A stretch of 64,000 bases of DNA from Candidatus Rokubacteria bacterium RIFCSPLOWO2_02_FULL_73_56 (GTDB taxonomy: Bacteria; Methylomirabilota; Methylomirabilia; Rokubacteriales; CSP1-6): contig MGCF01000006.1 of the NCBI GenBank assembly GCA_001788495.1, positions 2,106 through 66,105 of the forward strand. Direction: 5' to 3'. The position numbers and the translations under genes are program-made. The notes under the pieces were generated by a model. That model was given only the letters and a program-made list of their open reading frames with translations, was not told where the DNA came from and made no database searches. Shown in pieces: positions 3,660 through 63,455 of the stretch. Position 1 is the first letter of the stretch. Each line of letters starts with the position of its first letter.

Positions 3660-5417
3660 CTACGGGAGCCAGGCCCAGAGCTTCAGCCGGAGCCAGTCGG
3701 CGGCCTGGCGTGTCCAGATCCAGACGAGCAGGTGCCGCCCGGACACGATCTTGCCGACCCCCTCCATGCCGGGCCGGAGACGCTGCGGCGCCCGATCGAG
3801 TCTCGCCTCCACGCGGAAAGAATTGCGCCCGTCGCGGGCCGTCGAGACGGGCGTGATCTTCGTCACCGTGAACGGCAGCGCGTCCGATGGCCAGGCAGTC
3901 AGGAGGAGCTGGCCTCGCTGGCCCACGGCGATGTCGGCGATGTCGCGCTCGTCGACCTCGAGCACCGTGCGGTAGCCGGCCAGCGGCGCGACCTCGAAGA
4001 GGGTCTGGCCCCGCTCGATCGGGGCGCCGAGCGACTGGCTCAGGTCTCCGGTCACGACGACGCCGTCGAACGGCGCCACGACGTGGGTGCGGGACAGATG
4101 ATCGTCGGTCAGGGCGAGCTGCGCCCGCGCCTGGTCGGCCTGGGCGCTCGCGATCTGGAGCGCGGCGGCGTCCCCCTTGGCACGGGCCTGGTCCCGCTGG
4201 CGGCTCAGCTGCTCGAGCTGGCCCTGCCACCTCGCCCGTTCGAGCCTGAGCTCGCGGTCGTCGAGCACCGCGAGCACCTGCCCCTCACGGACGGCGTCGC
4301 CGGCGCGGACCGGCGCGTCCTTCAGATAGCCGCTGAACGGGGCGACCGCGGCGATGCGCGTGCTCGGCTCCATCACGCTCCGGGCCGACACGCGGTAGTC
4401 CCCCTCGGCCAGCGCCAGGAACAGGCCCAGGGCCGTGAGCCCCGCCACGGTGAGCTTGAGTGCGGTATGCCGCGGACCGATGAGATGGCCGAGGTGGCGC
4501 AGTCCCACCTGGACCGCCTTCTCGATCAGCCAGCGATCGTCCCGGCGCTGCACCTCCAGCACGGGACCCGCGACGGCCGCGAGCGCCTCGCAGAACTCCA
4601 CCGTCGCCCGATCGAACGGCCGGTCGGCCCCCCGCTCCAGGGTCAGCGCGCCGACCACACGCGCCCCCTCCGCGAAGAGGACCGTGCAGATCGCCCCGGC
4701 GTTGGACTGCCGCGCCAGGTCGGCGTGGGCCCCGGTCACGCGCGCCTCGGCCCCCGGCGGTTCCGGGTAGACCACCGTCGCGCGCTGGTCCAGGGCCTCG
4801 TCCATCGCGGCGCCGATCGCGCGGATCAGATTCGTCTGCTTGGCGAAGTTCGCCGTGTGGGAGACGGCCCGCGGGTGCATCCGGCCGCGCTTGAGGAAGC
4901 CGACGCTCACCCGGTCGCAGCCCAGACGCGTGGCCAGAGTCGTGACGAAGGTCGTCGCCGCGCCGTAGAACCGCTCGTGGCCGAGGCTGCTCGTGACCAG
5001 CTCGAGGACCGTCTGCAGCCGCTGCTTCGACGCCTCGACGCTCCCCGGATCGAGCTGCGCGGCGCCGAGGCGGTGCACCAGCACCTCGAGCCAGCCGGCG
5101 CCCCACTGGAGCTGGCGCAGGACCCCTTCCAGCTCCGCCTGGGGCCGGGGTGCGATGTCGAGCGCGACGACGCCGTGCACCCGCCCGTTCGCCTGGATCG
5201 GATACGCGACGTCGTAGCGCTCACGGTCCCGCACCGACGCGTCCGTACCTGCCTCGCGCTTCAGGACGATACCGCGCCGCTCGGCGAGCGCACGCTCCGC
5301 GGCCTCGGCCAGATGCGCCGCGGCGCGAGAGCCTTCCGGCCAGAAGGCCGCCGGAGCGAACTTGCCCGTGGTCGGAGAGGCGGCGACGACGACGCCCCGG
5401 CCGACGCCCGGGATCAT
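3660..5417 (-). CDS. GAF-domain protein fused to a HlyD-family membrane-fusion/adaptor protein. The true N-terminus may lie further upstream (see findings).
   Basis: Track ORF of 585 aa. GAF-like segments: RFYGAATTFVTTLATRLGCDRVSVGF...ICTVLFAEGARVVGALTLER. One TM segment: LKLTVAGLTALGLFLALA. HlyD core: VRAGDAVREGQVLAVLDDRELRLERARWQGQLEQL...VVAPFDGVVV...GYRTVLEVDERDI. Confidence 0.8.
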   Translation of the reverse strand: MIPGVGRGVVVAASPTTGKFAPAAFWPEGSRAAAHLAEAAERALAERRGIVLKREAGTDASVRDRERYDVAYPIQANGRVHGVVALDIAPRPQAELEGVLRQLQWGAGWLEVLVHRLGAAQLDPGSVEASKQRLQTVLELVTSSLGHERFYGAATTFVTTLATRLGCDRVSVGFLKRGRMHPRAVSHTANFAKQTNLIRAIGAAMDEALDQRATVVYPEPPGAEARVTGAHADLARQSNAGAICTVLFAEGARVVGALTLERGADRPFDRATVEFCEALAAVAGPVLEVQRRDDRWLIEKAVQVGLRHLGHLIGPRHTALKLTVAGLTALGLFLALAEGDYRVSARSVMEPSTRIAAVAPFSGYLKDAPVRAGDAVREGQVLAVLDDRELRLERARWQGQLEQLSRQRDQARAKGDAAALQIASAQADQARAQLALTDDHLSRTHVVAPFDGVVVTGDLSQSLGAPIERGQTLFEVAPLAGYRTVLEVDERDIADIAVGQRGQLLLTAWPSDALPFTVTKITPVSTARDGRNSFRVEARLDRAPQRLRPGMEGVGKIVSGRHLLVWIWTRQAADWLRLKLWAWLP

Positions 5418-10345: not shown

Positions 10346-13300
10346 TCACGCTCCGCTGATCGCGGTCGCGGGGCTCGCCTCGACCAGCTCGATGTCCGGG
10401 GCCACGTCGATGCTCCAGTCCAGGAGGTGCGACTCCGCCGACTCCGGCCGACTCAGCTCACCGCGCCGCGCGGCCGTCGTCAGGCTGCTCCAGAGATCCC
10501 CCGCCGCGTCGCCGTCGAAGATCCGGAAGTCGCGCAGGGCCGCCAGGACCCCGCCGCCGCGCTGCTCGTCGCGCGTGCTCAGGCCCGCGAACGCCCCCGC
10601 CGACCAGTCGATCCCCGGCGCGGCCGGTGCGAGGCGCACCGGCCCACCGAGCGCGACCTCGACAGGCTGCGCGGAACCCGTGTCGTGCGCGACGAGCCGC
10701 TCGCCCTGCGTCAGCGTCGGCGACATCACGTCGGCCACGCCCTCGTGCGCGAATCCCATCACGTGTCCGAGCTCGTGCATGGCCACCGTCAGCAGGTCCA
10801 CGCCGCCACTGCCGCCGCCGACGATCCAGCCGTACCCTGCAGCGTCGGCGTCGAAGACGATCGAGCGGCCCACGGTGGTGGCGAGCACCGGCCCGTCGAG
10901 CTCCGCGACCGCGAACCGGAAGTCCGCCAGCGCCCCCAGCCGCGAATCCCCGTTGCCCAGCGTGTCGGTCCACTGGCGGATCGCCGTGTCGACCGCGCCG
11001 TCCAGCGTGCGGACGTCGAGCGTGCCGGTCGCCGCCGGTGCGGACGCGATGGCCGCCGCTTCCATGTTCTGGCCGCCCGACTGCGCGAAGGCGGGATCCG
11101 TCGTCTTGATCGTGACGTTGTCGAAGCTCGCCGCTCCGCCGGTCGCGAACACGCCGAATCCGCCGTCCACGACGACCGCGTTGAACGCGAAGCCGACGAC
11201 CGCCTGACCGTTCAGCGTCACGCTGACCGTCGACCCCTTCAGCGAGATGCCCAGCGTGTAGTCGGTGCCCGCGTTGATCGTCCGGGCCACCGACGCGTCG
11301 ATGACCCAGCCGTTCTTCGCCGTGTAGTGCCCGATCACGACCTTGTCCGCGGGCGCGTCGATCGCGACGAACTTGAAGTCGTCCCCCTCGTACCGGTCGA
11401 AGACGAAGCCCGCGCGGCCCTGCGTGTTGACGATCGAGGACAGCTCGAGCACCGACGATACCTGGAACCCGCCGACGCCGAGGTCGATCAGCTTCGCCGC
11501 GGTCCCGCCCGAGGGCGGCACGGCCACGTAACGGCCGCCGCTCACGGCCCACGTTCCGCTCGTCGCGCCCGTGAACAGGTCGGCGACGCCGTCGCCGAAG
11601 TCCTCGGTCGACTGGAACGTCGCGGCCGCCTGCACCACCTGCACCTGGACGTTGTCGAACGAGCCGCGCGAGTTGTCCGAGCCCACCCCGACGAGGCCCC
11701 AGTTCAGGCCGTACGACCAGCCGTCGATCACCCGCGGCGCGAACGTGTAGGTCAGCGAGTCCTTGTTGTTGACGATGATCGTGGCGTTGAGGCCGTTGAT
11801 CGACAGCATCATGTTGTAGTACGTGTCGGCCTTCGCCAGGAACGGCGTCTGCTTGTCCACGTGCCAGCCCGAGGCGTCCCGGTGGCCGGCCACCAGCTTG
11901 TTCGTGGAGATGTCGATGCCGGTGAACTTGAAGTCGGTCTTCGTGTTGTAGTCGAAGATCAGGTAGGCGTTCCCCTTCCAGCCTGCCGTCGGCTTCACCA
12001 CGTCGACCGACGCGAGCATCTCGAAGTAGGCGGGCAGCGCGTCGCCGACCTGGTACACGGCGACCGCGTCGCCGCCCAGCGACTGCGCCGACACCTGGAG
12101 CGCGCCGCCCGAGACCGTCCACGCCCCGGAGTCGGCGAAGAACGCCTGGGCCGTACCGTCGTTGAAGTTCGCCGACCGCAGCACGTCGCGCTTGCCGCCG
12201 GGAACGTTCCCCGGCTGCGGGTCCGTGGGCGCGCCGGTCTGGTCGTGCCACGCGAAGTCCTGCTGCCTGATGACGGCGAGCTCGCCCTCCGGCTCGCCGT
12301 TCCGCGTCGGGTCCGCGCCCGTGTCGGCGGCGCGCGTCGGGTCGGCGCCGTCGTTGGCCGACAGCTGGTAGAGGAATTCCGCGAGCTGCGGCTGCAGCGT
12401 GCGGCTCACCGTCGCCATGCCGAACGGCGCAAACGGCACGAGGTAGCTGTTGAACTCGCCGGCCCAGTCGATGAGCCGGTCGCCGCCCGTGTTGCCGATC
12501 AGGACGTCGCGGCCGGCTCCGCCGAAGGCGCGGTCCTCGTAGCTGGCGGCCGTGTCGGGCGCGTTGTTGAGCCCGCCCGCCGTGGTCAGCACGTCGTCGG
12601 CGTTGAGCAGGTCGTTGCCCCAGCCGCCGTAGAGGTCGTCGCGACCCGTGCCGCCGACGAGCCAGTCGTTGCCCGTGTCGCCGAAGAGCGCGTCGTTGCC
12701 GTCGGAGAAGATCCCCGTCGCGACCTCCGCGCCCTCGGTGCTCACGAAGTTGAGGAAGAACTCCTTGCCCGCGCCCGTCTTCGACAGCTCGCCCACGTCC
12801 GTCAGCAGGATCTTCCGCAGCGGATCGTACTCGTCGTACAGCGCGAACTCGCCCGCGCGCCGCGTCCGGTCGACGTGCCAGCCGTCCGGGTCGTCCGGGT
12901 TGAAGCGGAGGATGTCGCCGTCCGCGAGGTTGAGCGGATGCCCGTAGTCGGTGCGGATGACGCCGATGAGCAGGTCGGTGGCGTCGTACAGCTGCGCGTA
13001 GGACTCGACCGGTGCCTCGGCGCCGGAGATCGCGTCGTCCCCCGAGCCGCCGTGGAGCGTGTCGTTGCCGACACCGCCGTAGATGATGTCGTCCGACTTG
13101 TGCGCGACCGTCGCGGAGCCGCCGAACTCGTCCTGGGTGCCGTTGAAGGTCACGTCCACGCTGAACGGCGTGAGGTCGGCCGTCTTCTTCAGCTGGCCGC
13201 TCACGTTGATGGTCGCCGACTGCACGTTGCCCGGCGTCGTGATGAGCAGGTCGAGCTGGCCGGCGAGGCTGCCGATCCCGTACAGCGGCTCCGCCGTGCC

Positions 13301-16300
13301 GTTCCGGCTCGTGAAGAGCCGGCCGTCGTCGCCGAGGACGCCGTCGTCGCCGGCGCCGCCCGAGATCCAGTCGTTGCCGTAGCCGGCCACGAGGTCGTCG
13401 TCCTGCCCCTCGCCGAAGAGCACGTCGTTGCCCTTCATGCCGTAGACGACGTCGTCGCCGCCCTCGCCGTGCAGCTCGTCCGCCGCGCCGATGTCGGTCG
13501 CCGCCTGCGCCGCCGTCGGCGCGTAGTCGAGACCGCCCGGGGTGTAGTCGACGAGCTGGACGCCGCGCACGACGATCTTCGCCTGCGGCACCGCCGGCGG
13601 GTCGTTCGTGTAGGTGTCGTAGTTGAAGGCCAGGAAGCCGCCGAACATCTCCACGCCGCCGCCGCCGCCCGGCGCGTCGTTGACGCCGAGCAGCCGATAG
13701 ATGTTGCCGTTGTCGCCGAGGATCACGTCGGCGTCGGTCGCGTGGCCCTGCGGCGTCAGGTTGCCCGCGTCGTTGCGTGCGACCGCGGTCCCGGAGCCGC
13801 CGAAGACGAGGTCCGAGCCGTCCGGCCGTTGGTTCGGCGTCTCCAGGCTGAACAGCGTCGAGCTGCCGCCGATGATGTCGTCCTGGCCCTGGTTGCCCAG
13901 GATGACGTCGTTCCCGCCGTTGCCCTCGACGTAGTCGTCGCCGTCGGTGGCCGCGTCGAAGGACGGGTTCAGGACGAGGGCGTTGCCCGCGTCCCGGGAG
14001 GCGCCGACGCGCGAACCGTTGCTCACGAAGTCGATCGAGCCGTCGCCCTGGATCACGTCGTCGCCGAGCTCGCCGAAGACCGTGTCGTCGCCGCCGCCGC
14101 CGGCGATGTAGTCGTTGCCGTAGAGGACGGCCGGCGTGCCGTTGGCGTGGTCCAGGAGCGTGATCTGGAAGTCGGCCCAGGCCGCGCTCCCACGCGGGTC
14201 CGCGTACTGGCTGGCCGAATTGATCAGGAGCTGGCCGGCCGTGGCCGCGGCGGTGCTGTAGACCTGCGTGCCGCTCAGCACCCGGAACCGCGGATTGGTG
14301 AAGTCGCCGAGCGTCAGCGACCGGTCGAGCGACACGTTGTCACCGAAGATCAGGTCCTTGTCCAGGCCGCCGTCGATGGCGTCGCTCCCGGTATTGCCGA
14401 TGAGGATGTCGTCGCCGGCGTTTCCGTACATCGTGTCGTCGGCGCCGTCGCTGTTGCTCTTGCTCTCCACCTGGATCACCCCGGCCGTCGACAGCAGCGT
14501 CTCCGCGATCGTCTGCGTGACGAGGCCGAAGTCGCCGAACTCGATGTCGGCGCCGCCGTCGCCGAAGAGCGTGTCCTGGCCGGGCGTCAGCGTGTCGTGC
14601 GTGTCCGGCGGGAACCCGGGAATGGGCGCCGACACGGCGAACACCGTGACCAGCTCGCGGTCGTAGAGCGTGCGGTCGATGACACCGCTGTCCTGGTTCG
14701 GCTCGGGGATGCTGACGGTCGTCTTGTGGACGTTGAACCCGTCGTCGCCGTAGATGATGTCGTCGCCGTCCTGGCCGTGGATCGTGTCGTGGCCCGAGCC
14801 GCCGGCCAGGTGGTCGCCCGCCTGGCTGCCCCAGATCGTGTCGTCGCCGCGCCCGCCGAAGATCGTGACGCTCTGGGTGGCGTTGCGCGCGTCGATCACG
14901 TCGTCGCCGGGGTTGTTGAAGGCGATCGCGTGCACCGACGCCACGCCCGACGTGCCGACGTACCGGCTACCGTCCTGCGAGGTGTCGCCGAAGACGACCA
15001 GCGGCGAACCCGCACCGCCGCCGCCGTTGATGGTGATGGTGTCGCTGCCGCCGCCGCCGTGCACGAGGGTGAGCGGGCCGCGGGTGCCGTCGGGCGCGGC
15101 CATCGTGCCGTCGATCGTCAGGCTGTCGTCGCCGCGGCCGAGCATGACCTCGAGCGTCTCGACCATCGTGTAGTTGATGCCCTTGGCGAAGTCGTGCGGC
15201 GTCCCGTCCTCGCCGACGAAGTGCAGGTCGGGGCCCATCCCGTTCATGAACAGGTTGCTGCCCGTCAGCGTGCCGACGTCGTTCGCGCCGCTGCCGTCGT
15301 TGAAGATGTTCAGCGTGTCGACCGAGCCCGTGTCGTCCGTGGTGATGACCTCGCCGACCGGGCCCGGATCGGTCTCGGTCGGCAAGATCACCGCCCGCCT
15401 GATCGAGCGGTCTTCTGGCCCGACGCTGCCGTCGATGGTGAGCGCTCCCTGGATCGCCGTGCTCGCCACGTGCGGCTGCACCGGGAAGAATTTCAGCGGC
15501 TGGATCTCGTCCGTCGGCGGGGCCTGCGGATTCGCCGTGACCCTGACGACGAACGGCGTGAACCAGTTGGTCGCGTCGAAGGTCACCGTGGCCGGGGTGA
15601 CGACCAGGCCGTCCGCGTCGAGGACGGCCGGGGTGAAGACCGGGCCGCCCGGCGGCACGACCACCGCCGAGTCGACCAGCGTCTGGTCGTCCGTCAGGAG
15701 GGCGATCGTCACCGCCGCCGCCGGCGCGTGCGTCAGCCGCAGGCTGTACGTGTCGCCGGTCGGGTCGCCCTTCACCACCAGCGTCGATCCGTCGGTCTCC
15801 CGCACGTAGACGCCGGCTCCATCCGTGTCGATGAGCTTGACGTTCAGCTTCGGAGCCGGCTTCGTCGCGAAGAAGCTTGTGTAGCTCGCGTCGGTGCCGC
15901 CCACCGCATGGCTGATCTGCGCCGTCACGGGATTCTGGACGACGAAGTCCTGGGCGGCCGCCACGTCCACGGTCGCAGCCACGTCCCAGTTGGACTCGTC
16001 GAACGTGAACGTCTGTGTCCCGGCGTTGTATCGCGGGTCGAGGCTCGAGAGCGCCAACCGCGCGTCGCTCGGACTCAGCGTCACCGTCACGGTCTGGCCC
16101 GCCGCCGGCGCCTTCGCGAGCTCCAGCGTGTAGCTGTCGGTGAGGCCGTGCGTGCCGGCCGCAGCGTCCTCCTCGAGCACCACCGTGTCCAGGTCGGTAT
16201 GCGTGAGGCGCAGCCCGGGCTGGTCGTCGTCGAGGACCCGCACCTTCACGTTGCGGATGGCCACGTGGTTGAAGTCGTCGTCCAGGCTACGGCTGCTCAT

Positions 16301-37895: not shown

Positions 37896-38297
37896 ATGAG
37901 CAAGCGAGACCTCTACGTCGTCGCCGCCGATCGGAAGGACCTCTACGAGCTGCTCCGGAAGCAGTTCGCCGGCAACGACAGCGTCGAGATCATCCTGGAC
38001 CGCCGCAAGGCCGAGCGCCGGCGCGGCGGCGGCGGCGTCGCGCCGGACAAGCGCAGGAGCGACCGCCGCGTCCGCGACGACGCCTACCTGCTGAAGACGC
38101 TCGGCGTCGTGCTGGTCTCGGTCGAGCGGGACGAGCCCGCCCGCCCGGCGGCCCCCCCCAGGGCCGCCGCCCCCGCCAGGGCGGCCGGCCCCACGAAGGC
38201 GGCGGCCGCCAGGCCCGCCAGGCCCGCCCGACCCGCCAGGCCCGCCCGAGCCGCGAAGGCCCGCCGGGCCGCCAGGCGCAGGAAGCGCCCCGGGTAG
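37896..38297 (+). CDS. Small hypothetical protein with a basic Ala/Pro/Arg-rich tail
   Basis: Track ORF of 133 aa: MSKRDLYVVAADRKDLYELLRKQFAGNDSVEIILDRRKAERRR...DRRVRDDAYLLKTLGVVLVSV, then a PARPARPARPARAAKARRAARRRKRPG tail. Confidence 0.55.
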   Translation: MSKRDLYVVAADRKDLYELLRKQFAGNDSVEIILDRRKAERRRGGGGVAPDKRRSDRRVRDDAYLLKTLGVVLVSVERDEPARPAAPPRAAAPARAAGPTKAAAARPARPARPARPARAAKARRAARRRKRPG

Positions 38298-60485: not shown

Positions 60486-60689
60486 GGCTGCGCCCTCCCT
60501 TCGTACCGAACGCTCTACGTGCATGAAGCCTGCCGCGGCACCGGAGGGCCGGGCGTCGCGGAAGTGCCCGAGCGGGCGCGCCCTCGGCGAGGCGGCGGGA
60601 CCTCCGCCCGGCGGGCGCCCTGGGGCGCGCGACCCCCGGCGGGGCGCGCATGCCACAAGCCCGGCAGGCGCGCCCCCTCGACGGCGGCC

Positions 60690-61733
60690 TCACTCGTGCG
60701 GCGCGTCGAACGGGCCCGAGATGCGCACGACCTCGTTGACGGGCCAGGCGCCGCGGCGGATCGTGACGACGAGCAGGTCGCCCGCGATCCCCGCGCGACG
60801 GGTGTCGGGCGTGACCGGGACGAAGCCGAGGCTGCGCGGGGCGTCGCCGTCGGTGAAGCGCGCGAACTCGACCGCCCGCCCCTCGGCGTCCACGGCGAGG
60901 ATCCGCTCGGCGTGGCGGTCGGCGACGAACAGGCGGCCGCCCGGGCTCAGCGCGATCCCGGCCGGCATGGGGCCGCGCAGCACGCGCCGCGCCTCGCCGT
61001 CCGCGCCGACGCGCCAGATCTCGCCGTCCGTGCGCTGCCACGGCGCGTCGGCGCTCCCGTCGCTCCCGACCCAGAGCCGGTCGGCGTCGTCCATCGCGAG
61101 CACGCGCGGCCGGGTCATGCTCGCCCAGCGCGCGTCGAGCACGCGCCCGGAGGGATCGAACCGGACGACGACGCCGCGCTGGCGGTCGGCGACGTACACC
61201 CGGCCGCTCCGGTCGACGGCCACGCCCTCGGGCTGCACGAGGAGCGGCGTGCCGCCCCGGGGCGGCGTGCCGCCCGCGAAGAGCTCGGCGCGCCCGGCGT
61301 GGAGGCGGTAGACGGCGCCGATCAGCCGGTCGCGCTCGAACGTCGTGACGAAGAGCTCGCGCCCGGCGCGCCCGGCGGACACCTGCGGGTTCCAGAGCGG
61401 CGGTCCCCAGGCGTAGCGCGCCTCGCCGCCGGGCGCGAGGCGGGCGCCGCCGGGCGGGATCCGGTAGAGCCGCAGCATGTCCACCTCGTCGCCCAGGTAG
61501 CGGCGCCCGGTCCGCGCGAGGAGCACGGCCCCGGCGTGGTCCACCGCGAGCGTCGACGTGGACGGCAGCCCGCGCGCCGCGCGCGAGGCCGCCGGGTCGA
61601 AGCCCGTGCCGGTGACGTACACCTCGGCGCTGAATCCGGGCGGGAGCGTGAGCTCGGCGCCCGCCGGCGAGGCCGGGACGAGGAGGACGGCGACGACGAG
61701 GGCACGCACCCGCACCGCGCGCGACCCCCTCAC
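60690..61733 (-). CDS. Secreted beta-propeller protein (NHL/SMP-30-like repeats)
   Basis: In track ORF 60690..62105. The start is taken as GTG 61733 (GTGA overlap with the upstream micro-ORF). Signal peptide (V)RGSRAVRVRALVVAVLLVPASPAGA. Repeated P.GVAVD..GRVYVAD and GIALSPGGRLFVAD blades. Confidence 0.65.
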   Translation of the reverse strand: MRGSRAVRVRALVVAVLLVPASPAGAELTLPPGFSAEVYVTGTGFDPAASRAARGLPSTSTLAVDHAGAVLLARTGRRYLGDEVDMLRLYRIPPGGARLAPGGEARYAWGPPLWNPQVSAGRAGRELFVTTFERDRLIGAVYRLHAGRAELFAGGTPPRGGTPLLVQPEGVAVDRSGRVYVADRQRGVVVRFDPSGRVLDARWASMTRPRVLAMDDADRLWVGSDGSADAPWQRTDGEIWRVGADGEARRVLRGPMPAGIALSPGGRLFVADRHAERILAVDAEGRAVEFARFTDGDAPRSLGFVPVTPDTRRAGIAGDLLVVTIRRGAWPVNEVVRISGPFDAPHE

Positions 61734-61852
61734 CCGGTGGTGACGGCGGCCAGGACGGACTCCACCAGGTGCGGGAGCCCCGCGGTGTCGAGGCTTCCGT
61801 CGTCGGCGAACGGCGTCGCCAGGATGTGGAAGATGTGCGGCCAGTCGATCAT
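61730..61852 (-). pseudogene. A 40-codon ORF resembling the N-terminus of a DapA/DHDPS-family lyase. It is a likely gene remnant, translationally coupled to the propeller gene.
   Basis: My own translation gives MIDWPHIFHILATPFADDGSLDTAGLPHLVESVLAAVTTG-stop. The xxTPFxxDGsxDxxxLxxLvexxi pattern is typical of DHDPS-family N-termini. Coordinates were counted by eye. Confidence 0.4.
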
Positions 61853-61974
61853 CGCCGCCGGCGCCGACTATACCATGCGCGCGTCGCGCTCGGAGGGCGT
61901 GACGGAAGCGCGCACGCGCGATCCCGTTGGAGGTGTCGGCCGGGGAGTGCGAGGGGGCGTCAGCCCCCTCGTCG

Positions 61975-62270
61975 CGGCCCCGCGTTGTCGAGGAACGTCC
62001 CGGCTTTGCCGGGGCGCGACGAGCCTCCGGGGGTCTTGGAGGGCCCGTCGAGGCCCCCCATGTTCTCAGAGCCCGTGAACGAATCGCCTGGTCGAGGAGC
62101 GCCACGGCTTCGCCGCGGCGCTCCGAGCGTCGGGGGGTTTGGGGGGCCCGTCGAGGCCCCCCATGTTCTCAGAGGGCGTGAACGAATCGCCTGGTCGAGG
62201 GGCACCACGGCTGCGCCGGGGCGCCCCGAGCGCCGGGGGGTTTGGGGGGCGCCCGGAGCCCCCCATGTTC

Positions 62271-62274
<4 letters not shown>
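61975..62274. repeat. About three tandem copies of a ~102-103 bp unit, each predicted to form two GC-rich hairpins. The array begins exactly at the kbl stop codon.
   Basis: catgttctcag recurs at ~62059, ~62162 and ~62264, with spacings of 103 and 102. Read in the kbl sense, the unit is TGAGAACATGGGGGGCCTCGACGGGCCCCCCAAACCCCCCGACGCTCGGAGCGCCGCGGCGAAGCCGTGGCGCTCCTCGACCAGGCGATTCGTTCACGGGCTC. The copy farthest from kbl is the most diverged. Confidence 0.75.

Positions 62275-63455
<1,181 letters not shown>

Follow-up and report, generated by a model that had tools for sequence, protein, structure and literature searches.

The stretch of DNA analysed here, hereafter referred to as the window, is 64,000 nt in length and carries on its minus strand the kbl gene (ORF 62271..63455), whose 394-aa product matches, with 100% identity, the glycine C-acetyltransferase of Candidatus Rokubacteria bacterium RIFCSPHIGHO2_02_FULL_73_26. 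In relatives with Kbl of 89-90% identity, the operon consists of a tdh-like gene, kbl, a DHDPS gene (dapA-like, 299 aa) and the gene for an NHL-SGL protein, and the dapA-like gene is full length at loci L030-L032, encoding a 299-aa PF00701 protein. In the window, a block of 384 nt (62273-61890, minus strand), composed of units A, B, a truncated C and a type-2 unit, directly follows the kbl coding sequence. Downstream of this block lie the original kbl-dapA intergenic leader of 37 nt (61853..61889, minus strand), which aligns with the 35-nt spacer after the kbl TGA in L031/L032 and holds the conserved TGGTATAGT motif at 61875-61867, and, outside the repeat, a remnant of 40 codons of the DHDPS/DapA-like gene (61730..61852, minus strand), for which L030-L032 carry the full-length homologues.

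Using TRF on the 64-kb window, the tandem array was detected at 61987-62275 with a period of 103, 2.8 copies, 87% matches and a score of 415, this being the strongest tandem array of the window by a wide margin. The 15-mer TGAGAACATGGGGGG is present exactly at 62273, 62171 and 62068 on the minus strand, with the spacing of 102 and 103 nt, and at no other site in the 64-kb window, while the 23-nt 3′ module was found there twice against an expectation of 0. These results agree well with the first-pass annotation, in which about three head-to-tail units were described downstream of kbl in the kbl sense, the first starting at the kbl TGA: the stop codon at 62271..62273 (minus strand), preceded by 450 nt of in-frame sequence with GC3 of 1.00, indeed forms the first 3 nt of unit A. 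The array runs, however, about 85 nt beyond the end originally given, to 61890, and the distal unit, which had been considered degenerate, turned out to consist of two parts, a type-1 unit cut short (62068-61981) and, fused to it, a type-2 unit that is itself conserved (61980-61890).

The type-1 unit is organized in the order TGA-GAACAT, hairpin 1 (GGGGGGCC / GGCCCCCC), AAA-CCCCCC, hairpin 2 (13 bp with a tri-loop), CTCGACCAGGCGATTCGTTCACGGGCTC and the next TGA. Unit A (102 nt; 62172..62273, minus strand) carries hairpin 1 at 62264-62244, hairpin 2 at 62227-62199 and a 3′ module ending in GCGATTCGTTCACGCCCTC, and unit B (103 nt; 62069..62171, minus strand) carries the two hairpins at 62162-62141 and 62124-62096, respectively. 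Unit C (61981..62068, minus strand) corresponds to the 5′ 88 nt of a type-1 unit, with hairpin 1 at 62059-62038 (one G.U pair) and hairpin 2 at 62018-61996; its own 3′ module has been lost, and its sublineage is that of unit 1 at L050/L068, where the 3′ module persists. The type-2 unit (91 nt; 61890..61980, minus strand; repeat family D5 of the window) has a different interior with the hairpin CGAGGGGGC-TGAC-GCCCCCTCG at 61971-61950, and its 3′ end is the family 3′ module CGCTTCCGTCACGCCCTCCGA. The dimer of type-1 and type-2 units is intact at an unrelated locus on another contig (L050/L068). The hairpins of 8 bp and about 13 bp that had been proposed for each unit are exact for unit B, in which they read GGGGGGCC-TCGACG-GGCCCCCC and GGAGCGCCGCGGC-GAA-GCCGTGGCGCTCC, the latter with one G.U pair; in unit A, hairpin 1 has 7 bp and another loop, and hairpin 2 contains a C.U mismatch.

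Among 16 full copies, the phase from the internal ATG to the TGA is 0 in 6, 2 in 8 and 1 in 2, and units A and B, which differ by 1-nt indels in the hairpin loops, specify unrelated peptides. With no conserved reading frame for the internal mini-ORF, the unit does not code for a peptide, and the ORF calls within the array are spurious, as was suspected from the beginning. A SECIS-like or readthrough reading of the TGA plus hairpin was also considered and ruled out, because neither the loop sequences nor the downstream frames are conserved.

Further copies of the unit were searched for both inside and outside the window. Motif searches and the covariance model gave no additional copy outside the kbl array in the 64-kb window. 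A strict scan with the exact pattern over 185,579 species genomes, one genome per species, yielded 19 contigs at unrelated loci, 18 of them titled Rokuibacteriota or Methylomirabilota MAGs and one Candidatus Binatia, with up to 5 such contigs per MAG. A covariance model built from 19 copies recovered more diverged copies in the same loci, and a leader-free pattern (hairpin 1 plus the C-run) detected at least 120 loci in soil and groundwater metagenomes, the environments in which the uncultured Rokubacteria/Methylomirabilota are abundant. About 100 of the 124 leader-free matches listed share a common plan, i.e., a stop codon, an A/T-rich leader of 3-9 nt, hairpin 1, AAN-C6, hairpin 2, CCTCGA and one of several 3′ modules. 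The five pattern matches in viral contigs are all unrelated low-GC sequences and include no family member. Rfam 15 holds no matching family, the best score in a permissive scan of 60500-63000 being blv_FSE with 19.8 bits (gathering score 34, E = 1.3), and the searchable literature gave no relevant description of repeats in Rokubacteria or Methylomirabilis, or of stop-codon-associated repeats. The kbl array is one locus of a two-hairpin repeat family that is dispersed across the phylum and not specific to kbl, and the family is, by Rfam and the searchable literature, previously undescribed.

The hairpins, proposed at first from the folding of single units, are borne out by covariation among copies. 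In an alignment of 112 copies fitted to the covariance model, a procedure that makes the figures lean towards structure although the margin is large, standard pairs occupy 94.6% of cells, in contrast to 40-57% for slid-partner controls, and double changes were observed at 16 of 21 pairs, including 10 out of 10 pairs of hairpin 2; a smaller earlier alignment had given 3 pairs with double changes. The consensus fold consists of two separate local hairpins within a unit of 102-104 nt: HP1 (21-22 nt) between AACAT and AAAC, and HP2 (29 nt) between CGCTCG and TCGAC. They are unrelated in sequence, and HP2 ends 30 nt ahead of the 3′ TGA. The fold energy per unit is approximately -52 to -58 kcal/mol, and it is lower still for unit B read on the antisense strand (-63 kcal/mol, z = -3.8). 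The balance between G.U cells (27) and A.C cells (35) gives no sign that the sense RNA is the selected form. In hairpin 2, a C.T mismatch predominates (50 of 98 copies), and in 55 of 98 copies a GNA tri-loop is closed by C-G to give GCGNAGC, the sequence of an unusually stable DNA mini-hairpin; this apex is a hint of a role at the DNA level. Hairpin 1 is followed by AAACCCCCC, with no U-tract, and no terminator-like site was detected on either strand within 61500-62500, nor any promoter-like site by promoter scan at the array.

The copies are anchored to stop codons. In the strict subfamily, a co-oriented gene with a clear coding signature (GC3 0.85-1.0) ends in frame at the leading TGA at 18 of the 20 loci; the strict search had demanded a TGA, but in no particular frame. 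The covariance model, which made no such demand, recovered divergent copies that also begin on TGA or TAG stops, except for one that adjoins a divergent gene start. For the unbiased metagenome sample, among the matches listed, the first in-frame stop is located 1-10 nt ahead of hairpin 1 in 53 of the 65 copies with co-directional upstream coding, and the distance from stop to hairpin 1 shows a sharp mode at 6 nt (24 copies), with 8 more copies at 7 nt. The stop codons at the copies (43 TGA, 14 TAG and 9 TAA, among the matches listed) resemble those of 552 control genes on the same contigs (369, 145 and 38, respectively). The last codon, in contrast, differs from the controls among the matches listed, with a pyrimidine (Y) at position -1 in 88% (47% of controls; p ~1e-10) and A or T (W) at position -2 in 74% (30% of controls; p ~1e-10). 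A short A/T-rich motif, W-Y-T-R-R, appears to be the target. Because the window contains about 20 TGA stops as against about 200 TGA/TCA triplets in uncalled space, insertion at any tolerated TGA cannot explain the anchoring of 90%; the null of any tolerated intergenic TGA predicts that at most about 17-35% should be found at stop codons.

Neighbouring genes were called with a gene caller requiring GC1 > GC2. Downstream of the copies, the next co-directional start codon is situated between +3 and +47 nt. Where the neighbour is convergent, its end lies between +7 and +17 or even within the element itself, at a reverse-strand TGA in the GTTCAC, and the element typically fills the whole intergenic region. 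Approximately 17-20% of the superfamily copies, among the matches listed, abut the start codon of a divergently transcribed gene. Copies of the window's subfamily carry a TGA at both unit ends, compared with the single TGA at empty sites; other subfamilies frequently have a 5′ stop-like triplet unlike the one at the 3′ end, so that a target-site duplication in the strict sense is only a possibility. In a genome of 72-80% GC (72-75% by the narrower figure), the W-Y-T-R-R motif is practically confined to gene ends.

Junctions with and without the unit were compared at two loci, kbl and L010 versus L153/L156. The empty kbl junction of L031/L032 (Kbl 89%) reads GTC GTG TGA, 35 nt and the dapA ATG, while the filled junction of the window reads GTC GTC TGA, the rest of the array, the leader (GCGCATGGTATAGTCGGCGCC...) and the dapA ATG; the Kbl length of 394 aa and the TGA are unchanged between the array-less relatives and the window. 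As the junction between kbl and dapA is empty in these relatives and yet carries this TGA, the kbl stop was there first and the array was inserted at it. At the second locus, the L010 unit sits after the GTC TGA of an enolase-superfamily gene, and L153/L156, relatives at 94-95% identity, share this GTC TGA and the protein length of 379 aa but have no unit; the position of the stop codon agrees between L010 and L153, although about 50 nt of flank also differ and the junction is not clean.

Unit A is 93, 92 and 90% identical to the copies in L001, L006 and L014, respectively, as compared with 88% to unit B, of which the closest relative is the L010 copy in a Methylomirabilota MAG (94%). As units A and B are nearer to the copies of other genomes than to each other, the sequences point to serial insertion at the kbl stop rather than tandem duplication. 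Two different subfamilies stand in tandem at L014, sharing one TGA, and at kbl the distal units are the most decayed. The kbl allele of L020, L021, L025 and L028 is composed of A′, C and type-2, that of the window and L022 of A, B, C and type-2, and that of L023 is joined to a different downstream gene. Independent assemblies of the kbl locus thus contain either 2 or 3 type-1 units, and three contigs end inside the array, in good agreement with the fragility of the copy number that the first-pass annotation had anticipated. The allele differences may be partly chimeric, because the assemblies are of short-read (k141) metagenome origin.

As the family is dispersed and located almost always exactly on stop codons, it probably represents a small mobile element directed to the ends of genes, kbl being no special case. 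The best reading is a non-autonomous element of REP/MIRU/MITE-like type targeted to stop codons. In its full form we hold it to be probable, with some reserve, that the block is made of four units of a non-coding two-hairpin family confined to Rokubacteria/Methylomirabilota, behaving as a non-autonomous mobile element that integrates at pre-existing stop codons. With respect to the mobility mechanism, the role of the hairpins at the DNA level and any effect at the RNA level, we infer the following course of events. The unit would integrate in gene orientation at an existing stop codon via the W-Y-T-R-R target, leaving, in the window's subfamily, a TGA at each unit end. Successive units of different sublineages would land on the same kbl TGA, pushing older and decaying units downstream, and recombination or assembly would then vary the copy number of the kbl array. 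Recognition of folded single-stranded DNA by a trans-acting enzyme is suggested by the asymmetry of the ends, by the strict orientation and by the conservation of imperfect hairpins, and these hairpins would most likely be the sites that the enzyme recognizes. Once in place, the array would form part of the tdh-kbl transcript, as its 3′ UTR or as a spacer between cistrons, and the stable hairpins, the first of them 6 nt past the stop, are expected by analogy to REPs (PMC3733652) to block 3′ exonucleases or to impede readthrough into the next gene.

The 3′ module has, in 21 of 21 occurrences, the 5′ part of an element within 95 nt upstream, hairpin 1 in 18 cases and a variant or type-2 5′ part in 3. 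Inspection by eye of the neighbours of the copies, including those with hairpin 1 only, revealed no transposase or other candidate enzyme, but ordinary permeases, response regulators and the like, and about 0.9 Mb of loci contained no long element bounded by both ends that could represent an autonomous parent. The best terminal inverted repeat is 6/8 (CTGAGAAC versus the reverse complement CTCAGAGC), and inside the TGAs the match is 5/8; given such asymmetric ends and unlike hairpins, the element seems to fit neither a classical MITE nor the IS200/IS605 type.

The rival that survives best, though we rate it as rather unlikely, regards the unit as a host-selected cis-acting RNA module at the stop, functioning for example as a 3′-exonuclease barrier, as a terminator or attenuator that needs no U-tract or depends on a factor, or by slowing ribosomes at termination, while the spread of the unit would be secondary. 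E. coli REPs located within about 15 nt of the stop codon lower the expression of the upstream gene. The strict co-orientation with the upstream gene, the fixed spacing of 6-7 nt between stop and hairpin, the high stability of the hairpins within each unit and the high conservation across species all fit such a module; the 93-94% identity of copies across species could equally be explained by purifying selection for a host function, and REPs are also found mainly 3′ of ORFs and are thought to act as RNA (PMC3733652). Against it stand the lack of G.U excess over A.C, the absence of a U-tract, the many copies lying 3-47 nt ahead of the next co-directional start inside operons, and the 17-20% of copies, among the matches listed, that adjoin divergent gene starts. 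Furthermore, the stacking of different sublineages with decaying distal units indicates accumulation rather than design, and close relatives lack the element at the same kbl junction. Stacked terminators in the canonical sense, one of the functions proposed at first reading, are not supported, given the missing U-tract and these intra-operonic copies; an RNA-stability element, another of them, is conceivable.

Returning to the mobile element, a more far-reaching version, which we put forward as an unlikely but conceivable extension, is that the integration machinery is aimed at ORF ends as such, accepting any of the three stops with a fixed hairpin offset of 6-7 nt, in gene orientation and leaving the protein unchanged. 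If true, it would represent a hitherto unknown targeting mechanism, for which the candidates would be a hairpin-recognizing single-stranded DNA enzyme with W-Y-T-R-R specificity or, alternatively, a process coupled to translation termination or mRNA 3′ ends, and modular 3′-UTR cassettes would have spread through a whole uncultured phylum.

In comparison with the known repeat systems, the element is nearest to MIRUs in position and arrangement and to REPs in structure, but it departs in defining features from REPs, MIRUs, classical MITEs, IS200/IS605 derivatives, attC sites and intrinsic terminators. MIRUs, reportedly described by Supply et al. in 1997 and 2000, are said to be head-to-tail units of about 50-100 bp, dispersed and co-oriented within operon intergenic regions, with ends that overlap the upstream stop codon, strain-variable copy number, and small in-frame ORFs but no dyad symmetry. 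The present units likewise form direct tandem arrays between operon genes, co-oriented, overlapping the upstream stop and variable in copy number; they differ in that the ORF is not conserved (6 of 16 copies in phase), that two covarying hairpins dominate the unit and that the host belongs to another phylum, the distinction from MIRUs being drawn from their description. MITEs of the IS5/PIF-Harbinger type are non-autonomous elements of about 100 bp with a 3-bp TNA target duplication. The similarity to these includes the size, the lack of autonomy, the insertion polymorphism, the nested or tandem insertion at what may be a duplicated target and the TGA at both ends in a palindromic CTNAG-like context (C-TGA-G), but the terminal inverted repeats are at best 6/8, the orientation bias is strong, the TAG-flanked subfamilies do not fit TNA, and about 0.9 Mb of loci yielded no parent IS. 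The mycobacterial TRIT motif is a conserved terminator-like motif after stop codons of high-GC bacteria. The units share with intrinsic terminators and TRIT a GC-rich stem-loop right after stop codons, repeated genome-wide, and are distinguished by the missing U-tract, the frequent location inside operons just ahead of the next start, the clear insertion polymorphism and the multi-module structure.

Derivation from a known hairpin-based mobile system, namely REP/REPIN mobilized by RAYT, a palindrome-associated element derived from IS200/IS605 or an integron attC site, appears improbable to us. REPs, including BIMEs and REPINs, are GC-rich imperfect palindromes of 20-40 bp with a GTAG or CGTC tag, extragenic and mostly 3′ of ORFs between unidirectional or convergent genes, usually arranged as inverted pairs, often transcribed and thought to be mobilized in trans (PMC3733652; PMC2817692). 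The copies of the present family are also extragenic, mainly just 3′ of ORFs between unidirectional or convergent genes and orientation-specific, and their imperfect hairpins keep a conserved mismatch. In contrast to the inverted pairs of 20-40 nt by which REPs are defined (PMC3733652), they are direct repeats of 102-104 nt, each a composite of two unlike hairpins with conserved 5′ and 3′ modules, arranged head-to-tail and positioned exactly at the stop, L132 being the one head-to-head variant observed. Neither a GTAG nor a CGTC tag is present beside either hairpin, the nearest motif being GACG 5′ of HP2, which is variable (RRCGYTCGG) and in the mirrored position, and no RAYT gene was seen among the neighbours of the copies. 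As for IS200/IS605-derived ('peel and paste') elements, the similarity lies in the absence of clear inverted-repeat ends and of clear target duplication, in subterminal imperfect hairpins, in orientation-specific insertion 3′ of a short target and in a stop-like triplet at each end, similar to the sites at which HUH enzymes cleave. The two hairpins, left and right, are, however, unrelated to each other in sequence and located 30-45 nt from the ends, too far for this type, and neither TnpA nor TnpB was found near the copies. With attC, the ends GAGAAC and GTTCAC pair at 5 of 6 positions, like R′′ and R′, but the ends (GAGAAC / GTTCACG) do not fit RYYYAAC/GTTRRRY, two local hairpins take the place of a single long stem, and the flanks are conserved housekeeping operons, here tdh-kbl-dapA, and not cassettes.

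That the units are repeated small-RNA genes with their own expression is very improbable: structured and conserved units of about 100 nt, with an antisense strand of unit B that folds even better than the sense strand, would be compatible with it, but promoter-like and terminator-like sites and any Rfam match are lacking, the units abut one another and the stop codon with no spacer, and their position is bound to gene ends and not to free intergenic space. Even less credit can be given to local tandem duplication or an assembly artefact of this contig, to which the variation between 2 and 3 type-1 units and the contigs breaking in the array might point. L022, which was assembled independently, repeats the three-unit layout, a simple collapse does not account for the two-unit alleles because they have a 3′ module that is absent from the window, the units are nearer to copies elsewhere than to each other, and the family occupies more than 100 other loci. 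Finally, tandem 32-aa mini-ORFs, either precursors of small peptides or coupled translationally to kbl as has been proposed for mycobacterial MIRUs, would agree with the ATG 4 nt after the TGA in each unit, which in six copies, unit B among them, is in frame with the terminal TGA, but are effectively refuted, since that frame is held in these 6 of 16 copies only, the loop indels alter the peptide completely between A and B, a Shine-Dalgarno sequence is absent, other subfamilies have no ATG, and conservation tracks base pairing and not codons.

The precise stop anchoring combined with strict orientation is unusual among bacterial interspersed repeats, and it offers a way into the question of how 'safe' sites are selected by small non-autonomous elements when the genome is compact and rich in GC. 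Such a repeat, which occupies short junctions between genes and interrupts short-read assemblies, may also mediate rearrangements, and this bears on the quality of MAGs; at the same time, the variation in copy number between near-identical strains could be used as a VNTR-like marker for strain typing.

The family also bears on whether such elements shape operon expression; here the dapA-like gene downstream of the array has decayed. A recombination scar next to the DapA-like remnant, as the first-pass annotation had suggested, is not supported, because dapA downstream of the array retains an intact 5′ end with its conserved 37-nt leader and the dapA deletion starts only about 120 nt further on. 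In every assembly carrying the array, all belonging to a single lineage, the downstream dapA-like gene is cut to 40 codons, and this decay is compatible with a polar effect of the array.

The repeat element that begins with the TGA stop codon of kbl was also found at the ends of convergent genes. In three other loci carrying copies, L003 (about 231-245), L008 (about 2850-2864) and L011 (about 1012-1026), the convergent genes terminate at a reverse-strand TGA within the 3′ module (GTTCAC) of the element, and therefore both flanking genes receive their stop codons from it.

Downstream of the array, the DHDPS/DapA-like gene is represented in the window by a remnant of 40 codons (61730-61852, minus strand), and this truncation is present in all the array-bearing assemblies; the gene is full-length (299 aa) in the array-free relatives L030-L032. 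The remnant is directly joined to the start of the gene for the NHL/SGL-repeat protein. Within the kbl-dapA interval we identified an extended -10-like motif, TGGTATAGT (window 61867-61875, minus strand; L031 about 2704-2712), and its conservation in the window, L029 and L031 suggests a putative internal promoter between kbl and dapA. The motif lies about 25 nt upstream of the dapA ATG. The 3′ end of kbl is altered in L029 (about 4170-4185) and L030 (about 2670-2685), where about 23 nt are missing between two GGCGTG-like repeats, and the kbl stop is therefore the TAG of a TATAG motif, replacing the ancestral TGA. In L023 (1735-2014), kbl is 100% identical and is followed by the array, but, unlike in the window, a convergent MFS transporter gene comes next; either the repeats mediated a rearrangement here, or the short-read assembly of this contig is chimeric.

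The tandem reiteration of the hairpin-2 module alone or the hairpin-1 module alone, observed for other subfamilies in the metagenome loci L041, L044, L075, L093, L118, L119 and L150, shows that the element is modular. A head-to-head variant in L132 (about 2263-2369) is perfectly palindromic, with hairpin 2 at the centre and hairpin 1 plus the C-run mirrored on either side. This variant adjoins a gene start.

The sequence GGGGGGCTTTCCGATCGCCCCCCAAGCCCCCTTCGG, frequently in tandem on the lower-GC contigs L061, L086, L101, L107 and L151, is a different repeat that fitted the search pattern by chance, and it seems to form a separate family. The window itself carries a C/G-rich tandem repeat with 9/18/60-nt periodicity (38145-38277), and tandem tracts with 27-nt periodicity (12611-12700, 13389-13470 and 14739-14794) that are probably coding repeats.
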